A DNA stretch of 64,000 bases from a virus (taxonomy: Duplodnaviria > Heunggongvirae > Uroviricota > Caudoviricetes), in IMG/VR virus record IMGVR_UViG_2595698394_000001, positions 81,866-145,865 of that record; one strand, 5' to 3'. The notes under the pieces were generated by a model. It was not told the DNA's origin and made no database searches. It worked only from the letters and a program-made list of their open reading frames with translations. Below are positions 5,331-9,061 of the stretch, piece after piece; position 1 is the first letter of the stretch, and each line of letters opens with the position of its first letter. Both the position numbers and the translations under genes were made by a program.

Positions 5331-5407
5331 CGGGTAATAGAGGAGTCTGGTTTATCTCGCTGCATTTGGGATGCAGAGCACGCAGGTTCGAATCCTGCTT
5401 ATCCGAC
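5331..5407 (+). tRNA. tRNA-Pro (TGG)
   Basis: Cloverleaf by hand: acceptor cgggtaa/ttatccg, anticodon loop tttggga, T-arm gcaggTTCGAATcctgc. Confidence 0.7.
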
Positions 5408-5486
5408 AAGTAGACTGTTATTAATTCATAGAGGACACGTACAGTAGCTTAATGCGAGATCGGTATGTCCAGCATAGAATTAACCT

Positions 5487-5558
5487 GCTGCCATCGTCTA
5501 ACGGCTAGGACCTCAGGTTTTCATCCTGGTAATCGGAGTTCGATTCTCCGTGGCAGTA
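5487..5558 (+). tRNA. tRNA-Glu (TTC)
   Basis: Acceptor gctgcca/tggcagt, anticodon loop ttttcat, T-arm cggagTTCGATTctccg. Confidence 0.65.
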
Positions 5559-5629
5559 CAGAATCTTAAGTTTAGGCTGAATTTAAGCGTTGAGTTGCTT
5601 CTCATAACAAGTACGTTAAGCTTGTATAC

Positions 5630-5702
5630 TGGAATATGGTGTAATTGGTAACACGTCTGGTTTTGGTCCAGAAGAGTGGGGGTTCGAGACCCTCTATTCC
5701 AA
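5630..5702 (+). tRNA. tRNA-Gln (TTG)
   Basis: Acceptor tggaata/tattcca, anticodon stem tctgg/ccaga, loop ttttggt, T-arm gggggTTCGAGAccctc. Confidence 0.7.
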
Positions 5703-5704
5703 CT

Positions 5705-5778
5705 GTGTTAGAAGCTAAAGTGGTCGAAGCGTCTGGTTGTGGTCCAGAAGATAGTGAGTTCGAGTCTCATTTAACACC
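5705..5778 (+). tRNA. tRNA-His (GTG)
   Basis: Acceptor gtgttag/ttaacac, anticodon loop ttgtggt, T-arm gtgagTTCGAGTctcat; no encoded G-1. Confidence 0.65.
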
Positions 5779-5837
5779 CTATGTTCATTTAAAACTAATG
5801 TTCAGTGTACATGAACATCTATAAATTGTGAACACAT

Positions 5838-5912
5838 GCAGAGGTGGGTAAACTGGTAAAGCCGCCCGATTTAGGATCGGGAGTTCTGAGGGTTCGACTC
5901 CCTCTCTCTGTA
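5838..5912 (+). tRNA. tRNA with anticodon TAG (Leu codon CUA) but a short, type-I variable loop; identity uncertain
   Basis: Acceptor gcagagg/tctctgt (2 G-U), anticodon stem cccga/tcggg, loop tttagga, T-arm gagggTTCGACTccctc. Confidence 0.5.
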
Positions 5913-5919
5913 CTTATAT

Positions 5920-6000
5920 GCCCCAATGGTGAAACTGGTTATACACGTAGCACTTAAAATGCTATGCTTAGGCTTGCAGGTTCGATCCCTGCTTGGGGTA
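5920..6000 (+). tRNA. tRNA-Leu (TAA), type II
   Basis: Acceptor gccccaa/ttggggt, anticodon stem tagca/tgcta, loop cttaaaa, 11-nt variable arm, T-arm gcaggTTCGATCcctgc. Confidence 0.65.
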
Positions 6001-6005
6001 CAAAT

Positions 6006-6078
6006 TTTCTCATAGTTTAACTGGAAAAACACAGAGTTACGGCCTTTGAGAGTAGGGGTTCGAGTCCCTTTGAGAAAA
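6006..6078 (+). tRNA. tRNA-Arg (ACG)
   Basis: Acceptor tttctca/tgagaaa, anticodon loop ttacggc, T-arm aggggTTCGAGTccctt. Confidence 0.6.
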
Positions 6079-6105
6079 CTTTATATACAAAAATAATTTA
6101 GATAA

Positions 6106-6137
6106 TTTGTTTTATCCAATTATTTGTTGTATGTTTG
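6106..6137 (+). promoter_or_regulatory. Bacteroidetes-type promoter, copy 2 of the 38-nt repeat
   Basis: Same TTTG-N20-TATGTTTG block as 5164-5195. Confidence 0.5.
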
Positions 6138-6269
6138 CCAAGAATTTAAAAAGATAAAAGTGCAACTAACAAAAACAGGCATAACAGTTATTGATAAAAC
6201 CAAGGGAGCGAGAGCTTATCTAGGGGATACTGTTATTGGCTAATTTTTAGTTAATTCAAATATAACAGA

Positions 6270-6299
6270 AACCCTCCTAGAAATAGAGAGGGTTTTTTC
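6270..6299 (+). other. Leader hairpin + T-run 5' of a tRNA
   Basis: accctc-ctagaaataga-gagggt + TTTTTT, 6 nt before tRNA 6305. Confidence 0.5.
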
Positions 6300-6304
6300 A
6301 TTAT

Positions 6305-6377
6305 GGCCCAGTAGCTAAACTGGCTTAGCACCTCCTTTGCAAGGAGAAGTATGTGGGTTCGAGCCCCATCTGGCCCA
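6305..6377 (+). tRNA. tRNA-Ala (TGC)? The 3:70 pair is C:C rather than the G:U Ala identity element
   Basis: Acceptor ggcccag/ctggccc (one mismatch), D-arm gcta/tagc, anticodon loop tttgcaa, T-arm gtgggTTCGAGCcccat. Confidence 0.5.
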
Positions 6378-6459
6378 CTAAAATTAAAACTATGGAAAAT
6401 ATTAGAGTATTTTGTAAACAGAATTAATTACCTTCGTTTAACTAATGAGGGTAACAACT

Positions 6460-6531
6460 ACCCTCGTAGCTTAATGGCAAAGCTCCTCTCTTTTAAAGAG
6501 GCGACCGCAAGATCGGTACTTGTCGGGGGTA
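6460..6531 (+). tRNA. tRNA-Lys (TTT) with a non-canonical T-loop (ATCGGTA)
   Basis: Acceptor accctcg/cgggggt, anticodon stem cctct/agagg, loop cttttaa. Confidence 0.55.
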
Positions 6532-6546
6532 CAAAAATTAGAAAAT

Positions 6547-6831
6547 ATGAAATTTAAGTTTATATTTAGGGCTTTAAAGTATCAACTACCTTTGGAAAGA
6601 TTACTTAGAAATTTTTTTATAACTGGTAATGGTTGGGGTATGTTTAGTGTACATGCCCATGTAAATAAAAAAGGAAACCCTAAAGTTGGATATAACACTT
6701 TGGAGACAGCATTAAAATCCGCTAACAGCATGCAAAAAAAGAACGGATTTCACTATTCCTCTTATATGTGTCCTAGGTGTGGAAAGTTTCACTTAGGTAA
6801 AAACAGAGATAGTATTAACAAAGGAATATAG
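6547..6831 (+). CDS. Small zinc-ribbon protein (94 aa; ...YMCPRCGKFHLG) embedded in the tRNA array
   Basis: ORF track 6520..6831 trimmed to the internal Met (MKFKFIF); CPRC...H motif; overlaps tRNA-Ile start by 10 nt. Confidence 0.35.
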   Translation: MKFKFIFRALKYQLPLERLLRNFFITGNGWGMFSVHAHVNKKGNPKVGYNTLETALKSANSMQKKNGFHYSSYMCPRCGKFHLGKNRDSINKGI

Positions 6832-6895
6832 CTCAGTTGGTTAGAGTACTTCGCTGATACCGAAGATGTCACAAGTTCGAATCTTGTTATTCCTA
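6822..6895 (+). tRNA. tRNA-Ile (GAT)
   Basis: Acceptor aggaata/tattcct, D-arm gctc/gagt, anticodon stem cttcg/cgaag, loop ctgatac, T-arm acaagTTCGAATcttgt. Confidence 0.7.
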
Positions 6896-6999
6896 CTATA
6901 AGCCTTATCGGGTTAAGGGAAGAGTCACCTGCATTCTTGGTAACAAGATAAAACCTTTAAAAGAAAGACTACACGATAGGAAGAGGTTGCCTATCATTT

Positions 7000-7073
7000 G
7001 CAGCAATCGCATAGCGGCCTATTGCACCTGACTTCCAATCAGGATCTCGTGAGTTCGAATCTCACTTGCTGCA
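7000..7073 (+). tRNA. tRNA-Gly (TCC)
   Basis: Acceptor gcagcaa/ttgctgc, anticodon stem cctga/tcagg, loop cttccaa, T-arm gtgagTTCGAATctcac. Confidence 0.75.
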
Positions 7074-7078
7074 CAAAT

Positions 7079-7152
7079 AGCGAGGTAGAGCAGCTGGTTA
7101 GCTCGCTAGGCTCATAACCTAGAGGTCGGGAGTTCGAGTCTCCCCTTCGCCA
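7079..7152 (+). tRNA. tRNA-Met (CAT), elongator-like (or Ile2); 1:72 is A:C
   Basis: D-arm gagc/gctc, anticodon stem ctagg/cctag, loop ctcataa, T-arm gggagTTCGAGTctccc. Confidence 0.65.
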
Positions 7153-7231
7153 CAAAAGTCGCCCTATGTGTGAAAGCAGCATAGGTTAAGGAGCCTGTAC
7201 ACCTCCAGCAGTTAAGCGACAACTGCTTTAA

Positions 7232-7304
7232 AGTCTATCGGTCCAGTGGAGTGGACGCTGCCCTGTCACGGCAGAGATCACGGGTTCGAGTCCCGTATAG
7301 ACTG
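7232..7304 (+). tRNA. tRNA-Asp (GTC)
   Basis: Acceptor agtctat/atagact, D-arm gtcc/ggac, anticodon stem ctgcc/ggcag, loop ctgtcac, T-arm acgggTTCGAGTcccgt. Confidence 0.75.
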
Positions 7305-7383
7305 CTAAGAGTAAAGAAACGTGATTAAGATAGGATGCCAGCTATGCTGAAGCACTAATACGCTAAAACTTTACTCTTTTTAT

Positions 7384-7457
7384 TCCCTACGTAGCTCAAT
7401 TGGTGGAGCACTGGTTTTGTAAACCAAAGGTTGTCGGTTCGAGTCCGACCTAGGGAT
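7384..7457 (+). tRNA. tRNA-Thr (TGT)? One extra nucleotide at the acceptor/D junction
   Basis: Acceptor tccctac/ctaggga (6 of 7 pairs), anticodon loop tttgtaa, T-arm gtcggTTCGAGTccgac. Confidence 0.55.
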
Positions 7458-7604
7458 CAAAATACACCTCTCGTGAAGTTTTGAAGTGTATTATAAGGTG
7501 AATGCGAAAATACTTTGCTAGCTTTGGGTGGGACATCTACACATGCAACAAAGGACAACTGTTTAGACAACCAGGTATTTTCTGTAAAGCCCACCACCTT
7601 TTTT

Positions 7605-7678
7605 ACCAGATTAGCTCAGGGGTTTAGAGCAACTCTTTTACAAGGAGAAGGTCGATAGTTCGAATCTATCATTTGGTA
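7605..7678 (+). tRNA. tRNA-Val (TAC)
   Basis: Acceptor accagat/atttggt, D-arm gctc/gagc, anticodon loop tttacaa, T-arm gatagTTCGAATctatc. Confidence 0.65.
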
Positions 7679-7689
7679 CTTTATTTTAT

Positions 7690-7762
7690 GGGGGATTAGT
7701 TTAACTGGAAAAACTATAGGCTTCTATCCTATCGAGTAGGGGTTCGAATCCCTTATCCCCTT
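7690..7762 (+). tRNA. tRNA-Arg (TCT)
   Basis: Acceptor gggggat/atcccct, D-arm gttt/aaac, anticodon stem atagg/cctat, loop cttctat, T-arm aggggTTCGAATccctt. Confidence 0.7.
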
Positions 7763-7772
7763 CAATATTTAT

Positions 7773-7846
7773 GGCCTTGTAGCTCAGTTGGTTAGAGCAG
7801 CTCACTCATAATGAGAAGGTCTCAGGTTCGAGTCCTGACTAGGCCA
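7773..7846 (+). tRNA. tRNA with CAT anticodon (Met or lysidine-Ile2), second CAT tRNA
   Basis: Acceptor ggccttg/ctaggcc (one mismatch), D-arm gctc/gagc, anticodon loop ctcataa, T-arm tcaggTTCGAGTcctga. Confidence 0.65.
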
Positions 7847-8025
7847 CAGCATAAATAATAATTAATATATTTGGTAGTTCCATTTATATTTTGTAGTATT
7901 GCAGTATGAAAACAAATTATTGTACATATAACAATTCCAATTGGTCGTTTAGTTACGACACAGGATCGGTATGTACTCTAGGCAGTGATGGATTAATAGG
8001 TTAATTCATTTATAAAGTATATAAA

Positions 8026-8060
8026 GATCCTGTTACGAAAGTAACGGGATTTTTTATTTT
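8026..8060 (+). other. Leader hairpin + T-run 5' of tRNA-Tyr
   Basis: atcctgttac-gaaa-gtaacgggat + TTTTTTATTTT, ending 1 nt before tRNA 8061. Confidence 0.5.
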
Positions 8061-8144
8061 GGGACGGTTGCTCGGCTGGAAGAGGCGCAGGACTGTAAAT
8101 TCTGTAATCCACTAGGAATGGAGGTTCGAGTCCTCCTCGTCCCA
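8061..8144 (+). tRNA. tRNA-Tyr (GTA), type II
   Basis: Acceptor gggacgg/tcgtccc, anticodon stem cagga/ttctg, loop ctgtaaa, ~15-nt variable arm, T-arm ggaggTTCGAGTcctcc. Confidence 0.7.
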
Positions 8145-8243
8145 CGACTACTAAAACAGGTGTAGGTAAGAACTTAAGATAACTTACTTATATGCGGTAC
8201 TTATGTAAAAGAAAACTGTTGGTGTGCCGAGTTGTTTTATAAG

Positions 8244-8331
8244 GAAGGTGAATGAATCGTTGGGATGAGCCTGGTCTTGAAAACCAGTGGAGGTTTAAAA
8301 GCCTTGGGGATCGTGCCCTCCGTCTTCCGCA
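8244..8331 (+). tRNA. Degenerate tRNA-Ser(TGA)-like element, possibly a pseudogene
   Basis: Anticodon arm ctggt-cttgaaa-accag and acceptor gaaggtg/cgtcttc can be paired, but the D- and T-arms are non-canonical. Confidence 0.25.
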
Positions 8332-8414
8332 AGTGCATTATAAAGCACTATAAAGTGTAATGGGTAAGATTTTTCCCAAATATACATAAATTAGTGCCTT
8401 ATATTGCACATTAT

Positions 8415-8501
8415 AGAAAGGTGTCAGAGTGGCTTATTGAGCTAGGTTGCTAACTTAGTGGAGTGAAATACCTTCCGTGGGTTCGAATCCCATCCTTTCT
8501 T
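8415..8501 (+). tRNA. tRNA-Ser (GCT), type II
   Basis: Acceptor agaaagg/cctttct, 3-bp D-stem with a long D-loop, anticodon stem ctagg/cttag, loop ttgctaa, long variable arm, T-arm gtgggTTCGAATcccat. Confidence 0.7.
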
Positions 8502-8531
8502 CTACATATCGCATATCGCAATATGGAATAT

Positions 8532-8619
8532 TCTTGAGTTGCCGTAGTTGGCCGAACGGTCCAGACTGTTAATCTGGTGAGATTTATCTCCATCGTAGGT
8601 TCGAATCCTACCTCAAGAG
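8532..8619 (+). tRNA. Type-II (long variable arm) tRNA carrying anticodon GTT (Asn codon AAC); atypical
   Basis: Acceptor tcttgag/ctcaaga (perfect), anticodon stem ccaga/tctgg (perfect), loop ctgttaa, 17-nt variable arm with gagat/atctc stem, T-arm gtaggTTCGAATcctac. Confidence 0.5.
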
Positions 8620-8763
8620 CTTAGTATAAACTGTGGGTTTACTTGCAGAAGAACAGTCGAAAGTAGAGTGTCCAAAGCTCGTGTTCTTTACCTACCGAGG
8701 GGTTTTGCGTTCAGCGTAAAATTGACCCAAAAGGAATATCGGTTAGCAAGGATACTTTTATAT

Positions 8764-8836
8764 ACTTGAGTAGCTCAGTTGGTAGAGCAGTGGTCTCCAA
8801 AACCAAAGGTCGTAGGTTCGAGTCCTACCTCTCGTG
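8764..8836 (+). tRNA. tRNA-Trp (CCA) with two mismatches in the acceptor stem
   Basis: D-arm gctc/gagc, anticodon loop ctccaaa, T-arm gtaggTTCGAGTcctac; acceptor acttgag vs ctctcgt (pairs 3:70 and 4:69 mismatched). Confidence 0.5.
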
Positions 8837-8858
8837 CTAGTGTGTAACACTATACAAC

Positions 8859-8932
8859 GGGGTTGTAGCTGAGTTGGTACAAGCGTCCGATTGAAGCTCG
8901 GAAGTACGAAGGGTCGAAGCCTTCCTTCCCCA
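8859..8932 (+). tRNA. tRNA-Phe (GAA) with two acceptor mismatches and a G54 T-loop
   Basis: Anticodon stem tccga/tcgga, loop ttgaagc, T-arm gaaggGTCGAAGccttc; acceptor ggggttg vs cttcccc (5:68 and 6:67 are T:T). Confidence 0.5.
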
Positions 8933-8987
8933 CAACGTTGCTTATTAACCACTAAAGTTAATGTTTTGTTTATAATAAGCAACAAAT

Positions 8988-9061
8988 AGTGCTGTGCCTG
9001 AGTGGTCCAAAGGAGATGATTGCAAACCTGAAAATCGTCGGTTCGAATCCGACCAGCACCT
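8988..9061 (+). tRNA. tRNA-Cys(GCA)-like; the ttgcaaa loop is present but the anticodon stem pairs poorly
   Basis: T-arm gtcggTTCGAATccgac, acceptor agtgctg/cagcacc, loop ttgcaaa identical to the canonical Cys loop; only ~1 Watson-Crick pair in the stem. Confidence 0.4.

Follow-up and report, generated by a model that had tools for sequence, protein, structure and literature searches.

A putative type II tRNA-Asn of Cellulophaga phage phi4:1 and its family of Asn and Lys tRNAs with long arms, apparently not described before

Can a tRNA with a long variable arm be a genuine tRNA-Asn? The question is raised by a gene in the final 64,000 nt of the marine Cellulophaga phage phi4:1 (Lightbulbvirus Cba41); this whole stretch of DNA is what we analysed and is hereafter referred to as the window. 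The gene combines the Asn anticodon GTT with a variable arm that has its own stem, and a first-pass annotation had proposed either that it is a Ser/Leu-type scaffold leading to mischarging or recoding, or that it is simply an unusual tRNA. We give a probability of roughly 0.7 to the reading that the gene encodes a working elongator tRNA, which would read AAC and AAU as Asn on a type II scaffold with a 7/5 branch. A 1-kb query was 99.1% identical to the GenBank records of phi4:1, the tRNA itself being 100% identical, and the gene is the same in the phi4:1, phi4:1_13 and phi4:1_18 records.

As read from the DNA, the tRNA has the sequence UCUUGAG-UUG-CCGU-AGUUGGCCGA-ACGG-U-CCAGA-CUGUUAA-UCUGG-UGAGAUUUAUCUCCAUC-GUAGG-UUCGAAU-CCUAC-CUCAAGA-G; its CCA end is not encoded. 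The acceptor stem (TCTTGAG with CTCAAGA), the anticodon stem and the T stem, which had been described as perfect, are indeed Watson-Crick paired at 7/7, 5/5 and 5/5 positions, respectively. The anticodon arm contains U36-A-A-U-C followed by U41. The variable region consists of U8578, a 4-bp stem formed by GAGA (8579–8582) and UCUC (8587–8590) with the loop UUUA, and an unpaired 3′ tail, CAUC (8591–8594), whose last base, C8594, is C48, the partner of G15. With 17 nt and a helix of its own, it belongs to type II, for which we took a variable region of at least 10 nt forming its own helix as the criterion, and the arm pairs covary in the relatives described below. ARAGORN reported tRNA-Asn(gtt) at 8532–8620. 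The first-pass annotation had allowed that a scanner might place the anticodon elsewhere than in the loop ctGTTaa (GTT at 8568–8570); none of the scanners did so. The Rfam model RF00005 matched at 44.9 bits (E=1.7e-7), above its gathering score of 29, and the marks of an elongator cloverleaf are present: the 7/5 branch, U8, A14, G18G19, U33 and the T loop UUCGAAU. Since stems, anticodon, arm and the ARAGORN and Rfam calls all agree, the anatomy given in the first-pass annotation was accurate.

We judged the structure from covariance models and covariation, not from the folding of a single sequence. On this basis the D arm is best read as a 3-nt connector, a CCGU/ACGG stem and a canonical D loop: columns 11–14/25–28 of the covariation alignment are 100% paired, and the Rfam alignment agrees. 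A 5-bp D stem opened by G8541, as implied by ARAGORN (G10-U25, with residue 26 missing), fits the family less well; in 14 sequences the additional pair, 10–29, is a G.U pair, and in 9 it is not formed. We also rejected a permuted ‘tmRNA*’ that ARAGORN called at 8054–8715 (+), which spans tRNA-Tyr, tRNA-Ser and the type II tRNA-Asn. Its ‘tag peptide’ was read through the tRNA-Asn gene, and the call is almost certainly false.

Relatives of the gene proved to be numerous. BLAST retrieved type II tRNAs of about 85% similarity, with Lys anticodons, from two uncultured phages of ~635 kb. A pattern scan of IMG/VR (CAGACTNTTAATCTG, 13–24 nt, GGTTCGANTCC), the pattern of which selects NTT anticodons, hit at least 120 viral loci, and ARAGORN found at least 42 unique long Asn(GTT) and at least 54 unique long Lys(TTT/CTT) tRNAs in the loci listed. 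A second scan specified the D arm only (CCGTAGTTGGYCGAACGG) and left the anticodon unconstrained; its 16 loci were all type II and all had NTT anticodons, GTT in 10 and TTT/CTT in 6. We built a family covariance model from 25 relatives, leaving the window out. It matched the window at exactly 8532–8619, over model positions 1–88, with 106.2 bits (E about 9e-27), while the next-best match in the window, a tRNA-Ser, reached 47.7 bits. The score of the window gene exceeded every match in the 97 loci searched with the model, where members scored 60–104 bits.

The family is also conserved in structure. In a 23-sequence alignment, 98.5% of cells formed standard pairs, compared with 78% after shuffling and 32–48% when the partner columns were slid. 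Changes on both sides of a pair occurred in 17/24 pairs and in all five helices including the variable arm, for example in 6/7 acceptor pairs, 4/4 D-stem pairs and 2/3 of the scored arm pairs. Tertiary positions are invariant, among them G15 and C48, its partner in the last position of the variable region, and the 3′ tail of the arm is conserved as C-C-A-N-C. Our search of the open-access literature turned up no account of type II Asn or Lys tRNAs. Judged from these alignments, there is a large family of type II Asn (GUU) and Lys (UUU/CUU) tRNAs, mainly in phages, that is apparently undescribed. The alternative ‘simply an unusual tRNA’ came closer to the result than the mischarging proposal, and it understated the case by treating as singular a gene that belongs to a large family.

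These alignments also bear on the GenBank records, which label the gene ‘tRNA-OTHER’ or ‘tRNA-Pseudo’. Taken literally, the latter would make it a decaying or non-functional gene, in keeping with an Rfam score that is among the lowest in the cluster and with the abnormal connector. The covariation and the invariant tertiary positions argue against decay. So do the perfection of every stem, the compensatory changes in five helices among dozens of relatives, the 106 bits obtained with the family model, the conserved identity marks (see below) and the identity of the gene in the three phi4:1 records. Moreover, a pseudo flag is the expected output of a scorer trained on tRNA-Asn of type I. We regard decay as very improbable.

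Members of the family have been annotated without comment. Two cultured jumbo phages of Xanthomonas, XacN1 and X1, have a member of 87 nt with the anticodon CTT that is annotated as plain ‘tRNA-Lys’. The XacN1 paper does not mention the arm and counts 26 tRNAs with amino-acid anticodons as canonical, a set that should include the long-armed tRNA-Lys. In XacN1 this type II tRNA-Lys(CUU) (L140:1497–1583, +) has A73 and an encoded CCA and is followed directly by a type I tRNA-Lys(UUU) and a tRNA-Tyr; the two adjacent Lys genes would make a convenient experimental pair. Several phages also carry 80-nt tRNA-Lys(UUU) genes (L020:7967–8046, L040, L057, L065, L112 and L044) that agree with the family in connector, D arm and anticodon arm but have an 11-nt variable loop lacking an obvious helix, and U73. 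By their sequences, they look like intermediates between type I and type II.

Long arms also occurred on isoacceptors outside the selection made by the pattern, namely Thr-UGU (9), Met (10), Ile (13), Cys (5), Trp (4) and His (3) among the matches listed, where none was found on Ala or Gly tRNAs. Type II forms among these matches were enriched in Lys, Asn, Thr-UGU, Ile and Met, an enrichment that is biased because the loci were picked by the NTT-anticodon pattern. The long-armed Thr-UGU, Met, Ile-GAU, Cys, Trp and His tRNAs (viral loci L006–L125; for example L091:1513–1606, L044:2362–2455 and L033:11562–11656) keep the discriminators of their anticodon class: mostly U73 in Cys (4/6), G73 in Trp, and C73 in His, with a leading extra G in several. 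The tRNA-Ile(UAU) genes have variable regions of 23–27 nt, often containing CAGATTAG. Conversely, type I Leu tRNAs (42) were nearly as common as type II ones (49) in the sampled viral loci, and type switching in phages therefore seems to run both ways.

Which amino acid would such a tRNA carry? We compared identity positions and arm geometry among Asn, Lys, Ser, Tyr and Leu tRNAs in the pattern-scan loci, among the matches listed. The combination of U1:A72 and G73 was the commonest acceptor end in both types of tRNA-Asn (30/42 type II, 38/57 type I) and was absent from genuine tRNA-Ser (0/82). G73 was present in 38/42 type II and 52/57 type I tRNA-Asn genes and in 0/54 type II tRNA-Lys genes; the latter had A73 in 45/54 cases, like type I tRNA-Lys. 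Among the loci of the D-arm scan, which share a near-identical body, G73 accompanied GTT in 10/10 and A73 accompanied TTT/CTT in 6/6 (Fisher p=1.2e-4, relatedness being ignored). Asn identity consists of the anticodon and G73 and can be transplanted into tRNA-Lys, while Lys uses A73 (PMC9976931). Judged from these positions, the switch between G73 with GTT and A73 with TTT/CTT is the Asn-versus-Lys rule for class IIb synthetases, and the predicted identity marks follow the anticodon, not the scaffold.

The window tRNA has the Asn set, G34 U35 U36, G73 (G8619) and U1:A72 (U8532:A8618). U1-A72 is a determinant for the Asp-tRNA(Asn) amidotransferase, C2-G71 is listed as an antideterminant for seryl-tRNA synthetase (SerRS) in E. 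coli tRNA-Leu, and G73 as one for leucyl- and tyrosyl-tRNA synthetases (LeuRS and TyrRS) (PMC9976931). With bacterial tRNA-Ser it shares the long arm, G73 and C11:G24, and differs from it in the acceptor end and the arm. Where tRNA-Ser has G1:C72, G2:C71 (78/81 in our sample, against 16/41 in type II tRNA-Asn) and A3:U70 (68/81 in phage tRNA-Ser), the window tRNA has U1:A72, C2:G71 and U3:A70, and type II tRNA-Asn in general resembles type I tRNA-Asn at pairs 2:71 and 3:70. The arm of tRNA-Ser typically has 1 nt on the 5′ side, a stem of ~5 bp and 1 nt on the 3′ side, whereas type II Asn and Lys tRNAs have 1 nt, ~4 bp and 3–4 nt; at least three unpaired 3′ nucleotides occurred in 30/41 type II tRNA-Asn but in 1/81 tRNA-Ser. 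The window arm (1 nt, 4 bp, 4 nt) follows the pattern of type II Asn and Lys tRNAs, which resembles that of tRNA-Tyr.

Bacterial tRNA-Tyr(GUA), with 1 nt on the 5′ side, a 3–4 bp stem, 3–4 unpaired 3′ nucleotides and a similar anticodon arm differing by one base in the anticodon, is by these comparisons the nearest structural relative. It differs in having G1:C72 and A73 (A73 in 36/36 sampled tRNA-Tyr genes), where the window tRNA has U1:A72, G73 and U36. In core sequence the scaffold is about equally similar to Ser, Tyr and Leu tRNAs (identity about 0.64–0.69).

These comparisons weigh on the idea that the gene is a missense tRNA, which SerRS (or TyrRS) would charge through the long arm so that Ser or Tyr enters at Asn codons as deliberate mistranslation or recoding. 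The idea draws on the fact that SerRS relies most on a long variable arm and on G73 (PMC7609411; PMC9976931), both present here, and ignores the anticodon (PMC9976931). Other points in its favour are the single base that separates the anticodon arm from the GUA arm of tRNA-Tyr and a bacterial tRNA-Tyr body with the anticodon GTT (see below). Set against it are the U1:A72 and C2:G71 pairs with their listed antideterminant role, the role of G73 against TyrRS and LeuRS, and an arm geometry that is not Ser-like. A Ser-charging design would also leave unexplained why the same scaffold switches to A73 with Lys anticodons.

The phage's own codons point the same way. We aligned the phage ribonucleotide reductase (RNR) alpha with 113 homologues. 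The majority residue was Asn at 22/31 of the AAT/AAC sites and Ser at 0/31, ruling out a full recoding of AAY codons. Asn codons make up 6.2% of the codons in long phage open reading frames, so an inserter of Ser would harm proteins of the phage itself. The window contains all 24 tRNAs annotated in the phi4:1 GenBank record, ARAGORN found no second tRNA-Asn in its 64 kb, and the gene is the only tRNA-Asn encoded by phi4:1. The Ser/Leu-type scaffold with mischarging or recoding, as proposed in the first-pass annotation, therefore finds no support, and we consider a missense tRNA quite unlikely.

If the gene is a working tRNA-Asn, the asparaginyl-tRNA synthetase (AsnRS) of the host would charge it through G34-U35-U36 and G73, the known bacterial Asn identity set, and U1:A72 would also be read by the amidotransferase. 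The other bacterial route to Asn, a non-discriminating AspRS together with GatCAB, would be an alternative. C2:G71, the absence of G1:C72/G2:C71 and the Tyr-like arm geometry would keep SerRS off, as G73 would TyrRS and LeuRS. Host enzymes presumably perform RNase P cleavage, 3′ trimming and CCA addition, and the matured tRNA would then decode the Asn codons, ~6% of phage codons. Several observations weigh against this scheme, in addition to the GenBank labels and the abnormal three-nucleotide connector. The single-sequence minimum-energy fold is not a cloverleaf (z = -1.9). G73 is common to the Asn and Ser sets and does not discriminate between them. Himeno et al. are said to have found in 1990 that E. 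coli tRNA-Tyr with a lengthened variable stem gains some serine acceptance; together with G73 and the 4-bp arm, this suggests that some serylation may occur. Class II synthetases approach the tRNA from the side of the variable loop, so the arm could hinder AsnRS.

The gene sits in a cluster of ~23 tRNAs (5331–9061), between tRNA-Ser(GCU) and tRNA-Trp. The same slot in the sister phage phi17:2 holds a canonical 73-nt type I tRNA-Asn of unrelated sequence (L003:2654–2726), and Calle_1, a less closely related Cellulophaga phage, likewise has a tRNA-Asn of type I there. The phi17:2 gene thus has the same anticodon and position as the window gene, which differs from a type I tRNA-Asn in its variable region (17 nt, with a helix, against ~5 nt) and in its 3-nt connector. 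The upstream Tyr-Ser spacer of phi4:1 is identical to that of phi17:2 at 268/269 positions. Identity ends at the first base of the tRNA and returns a few nucleotides before tRNA-Trp, and the alignment identifies the difference as a sharp cassette swap. As for a donor, BLAST of 8503–8763 against all sampled loci matched the tRNA only, and the 137-nt downstream spacer had no relative there. The GenBank annotation of the rest of the window lists no tRNA repair genes, aminoacyl-tRNA synthetases or CCA-adding enzyme.

Why should a phage replace one tRNA-Asn with a long-armed one? The arm gives the tRNA a different shape beside the anticodon stem, and a supply of such Asn and Lys tRNAs may, speculatively, escape or soak up host nucleases. 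The PARIS nuclease AriB cuts Lys-UUU, Thr-UGU and Asn-GUU tRNAs between positions 40 and 41, and phage T5 escapes it through type I variants of all three (PMC12409363). With an arm emerging 3–4 nt from this cut site, the tRNA could keep such enzymes out or itself act as a decoy, although this too is speculative. A bacterial Schlafen also cuts Lys-UUU. The long-arm isoacceptors among the matches listed include the AriB targets Lys, Asn and Thr-UGU, and several phages have type II and type I Asn genes next to each other; we count both in favour of a defence role. AriB reads U16-U17 and U36AAUC in E. coli tRNA-Lys (PMC12409363). The window tRNA retains both elements, which counts against it. To our knowledge, no tRNA nucleases of Cellulophaga have been described, another point against the idea.

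The T5 anti-PARIS tRNA set is, by analogy, the nearest functional counterpart: these are phage copies of the same isoacceptors, kept since those of the host are cut by its nucleases. The T5 variants, which are type I, escape by point changes at 16, 39 and 41, whereas the window tRNA keeps U16, U39 and C40 and adds an arm. As a hypothesis, shape-based escape from host defences that cleave tRNA is plausible. More broadly, and tentatively, since we hold it possible rather than probable, Asn and Lys tRNAs (more rarely those for Thr, Ile, Met, Cys, Trp and His) may have been moved onto type II scaffolds with their cognate marks kept, as a shape-based counter-defence of phages acting by steric escape or as a decoy. 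The nucleases would then be PARIS AriB, PrrC, or Schlafen-like and colicin E5-like enzymes, and the phi4:1/phi17:2 swap would be a snapshot of an arms race.

A stronger form of the decoy idea is that the molecule does little decoding and works as a sponge, which would bind host tRNA nucleases or another host or phage factor, so that copies with little or no charging would shield the host tRNA-Asn. The retention of the AriB-read elements with an arm added beside the 40|41 cut site would suit such a role, as would the adjacency of type II and type I Asn or Lys genes in many phages. In phi4:1, on the other hand, the type II gene replaces the canonical tRNA-Asn and does not accompany it. The Asn identity set, the canonical T loop and the conserved D/T tertiary positions are features that a decoy would not need, and in Solirubrobacterales a type II tRNA-Asn is maintained on the chromosome at a housekeeping locus (see below). 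We therefore think a pure decoy unlikely. The null explanation is that the arm is an insertion tolerated by class IIb synthetases and later fixed; the conserved helix and tail and the frequent adjacent type I/type II pairs argue for some function instead.

Long-armed tRNA-Asn genes are also found in cellular genomes. The GTT version of the first pattern, which fixes the anticodon stem, hit 13 loci in 185,579 species genomes and gave no match in Cellulophaga or other Flavobacteriaceae. Several of the 13 are phage-like tRNA clusters on contigs of metagenome-assembled genomes (MAGs). Four Solirubrobacterales MAGs and one unclassified bacterial MAG contain a lone 84–85 nt type II tRNA-Asn with U1:A72 and G73, located 1–2 kb from dgt-dnaG in all five; the synteny holds while the DnaG proteins are 61–87% identical. 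A sixth copy, in another Solirubrobacterales MAG (L132), lies at the edge of the locus and is followed by a terminator. The arms show compensatory changes (GCCC/GGGC versus GUCC/GGAC). Actinobacteria usually have asnT beside dgt-dnaG, and the type II tRNA-Asn therefore appears to be a chromosomal housekeeping gene in Solirubrobacterales. From synteny and sequence, Solirubrobacterales look like a cellular lineage with a type II chromosomal tRNA-Asn. The scan also hit, in a Chromatiales MAG (L134:5291–5376, +), a typical tRNA-Tyr body (G1:C72, A73, encoded CCA, and Tyr-like D and variable arms) in which GTT takes the place of the anticodon GTA. A missense tRNA that inserts Tyr, a mutated copy and a sequencing error are the candidate explanations.

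Known tRNAs with related peculiarities differ from the window tRNA in instructive ways. The nev- and nov-tRNAs of nematodes and other eukaryotes, reportedly described by Hamashima et al. in 2016, are said to be V-arm tRNAs with anticodons other than those of Leu and Ser that keep Leu/Ser identity. They resemble the window tRNA in having a long arm on a normally type I anticodon, and they are charged by the arm, whereas the identity marks of the window tRNA follow the anticodon and its setting is bacterial and phage. Bacterial and phage allo-tRNAs and (8/4) tRNA-Ser/His have a long V arm, occur in phage tRNA clusters and often carry unexpected anticodons (Mukai et al. 2017, PMC5389517). The branch of allo-tRNAs is 8/4 or 9/3, their D arm is Sec-like and their marks are of the Ser type; the 7/5 branch, here with Asn marks, rules out membership of the window tRNA in that group. 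A natural type switch with retention of cognate identity is known from Streptomyces coelicolor, which has a type I tRNA-Leu (PMC6614811). That switch runs the opposite way, from type II to type I, and concerns another amino acid; it is also present in the phi4:1 cluster, where the tRNA-Leu(UAG) at 5838–5913 (+) is a 76-nt type I molecule whose variable loop is short and which has A73.

The importance of the window gene lies in the family it reveals, not in any change of the genetic code. Should these tRNAs indeed carry Asn and Lys, a large extra arm would be tolerated by class IIb synthetases, EF-Tu and the ribosome on isoacceptors that were supposed to be always type I. The textbook limit of long arms to Leu, Ser, Tyr and Sec would then break down widely among phages, as well as in at least one order of bacteria, and the Solirubrobacterales would represent a cellular lineage with a type II housekeeping tRNA-Asn. 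The known design space of natural tRNAs would become wider, with ready scaffolds for tRNA engineering, and the ‘pseudo’ and ‘OTHER’ labels, or the silent annotation as ordinary tRNA-Lys, would be explained. If the arm protects against tRNA-cleaving immunity, it would constitute a new type of phage counter-defence, an idea made directly testable by phi4:1 and phi17:2, near-identical phages that differ in the cassette.

Table 1. Positions of the type II tRNA-Asn gene and its parts, of the exchanged cassette, and of the tRNA-Asn genes from MAGs
Feature	Position	Strand	Remark
Type II tRNA gene, anticodon GTT (Asn)	8532–8619	+	88 nt through discriminator G73
Acceptor 5′ strand, UCUUGAG (DNA TCTTGAG)	8532–8538	+	gives U1:A72, C2:G71, U3:A70
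Connector UUG (U8 U9 G) between acceptor and D stems	8539–8541	+	3 nt; 2 nt is normal
D arm, CCGU (8542–8545) with ACGG (8556–8559)	8542–8559	+	loop AGUUGGCCGA with A14, G15, G18, G19, A21
Anticodon arm, stem CCAGA/UCUGG, loop CUGUUAA	8561–8577	+	5/5 bp; GUU at 8568–8570
Variable region TGAGATTTATCTCCATC	8578–8594	+	17 nt
T arm, GUAGG/UUCGAAU/CCUAC	8595–8611	+	5/5 bp
Acceptor 3′ strand, CUCAAGA	8612–8618	+	then discriminator G73 at 8619
Cassette wholly different from phi17:2	8533–8756	+	flanks nearly identical
MAG type II tRNA-Asn(GUU)	L137:4045–4129	-	
MAG type II tRNA-Asn(GUU)	L130:2570–2654	-	
MAG type II tRNA-Asn(GUU)	L135:132–216	-	
MAG type II tRNA-Asn(GUU)	L138:2846–2930	-	
MAG type II tRNA-Asn(GUU)	L133:2524–2607	-	unclassified

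Three other members of the phi4:1 cluster have unusual features. A tRNA-like stretch at 8243–8328 (+) was missed by ARAGORN, and GenBank has a 34-aa ‘hypothetical protein’, Phi4113_076, and no tRNA there. It matches the Rfam tRNA-Sec model weakly (29.3 bits, below the gathering score) and has the anticodon loop CUUGAAA, giving UGA (Ser, UCN codons). Its acceptor stem has 8 bp (GGAAGGUG/CGUCUUCC) and its T stem 4 bp, and the T loop, of 6 nt, is degenerate. An identical sequence is present in phi17:2, and in Calle_1 the corresponding position is taken by a normal tRNA-Ser(UGA). By analogy, the stretch may be an (8/4) tRNA-Ser(UGA) like those that Mukai et al. reported in phages. At 6460–6532 (+), the type I tRNA-Lys(UUU) of phi4:1 has the T loop AUCGGUA, compared with the consensus UUCGAAU. 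The stretch at 8988–9061 (+) scored 40.1 bits with the Rfam tRNA model, received no ARAGORN call and is labelled ‘tRNA-Pseudo’ in GenBank. It has the anticodon GCA (Cys), an anticodon stem that is nearly all mismatched and a type II-like D arm, is conserved in phi17:2, and would be the sole Cys tRNA of the cluster.

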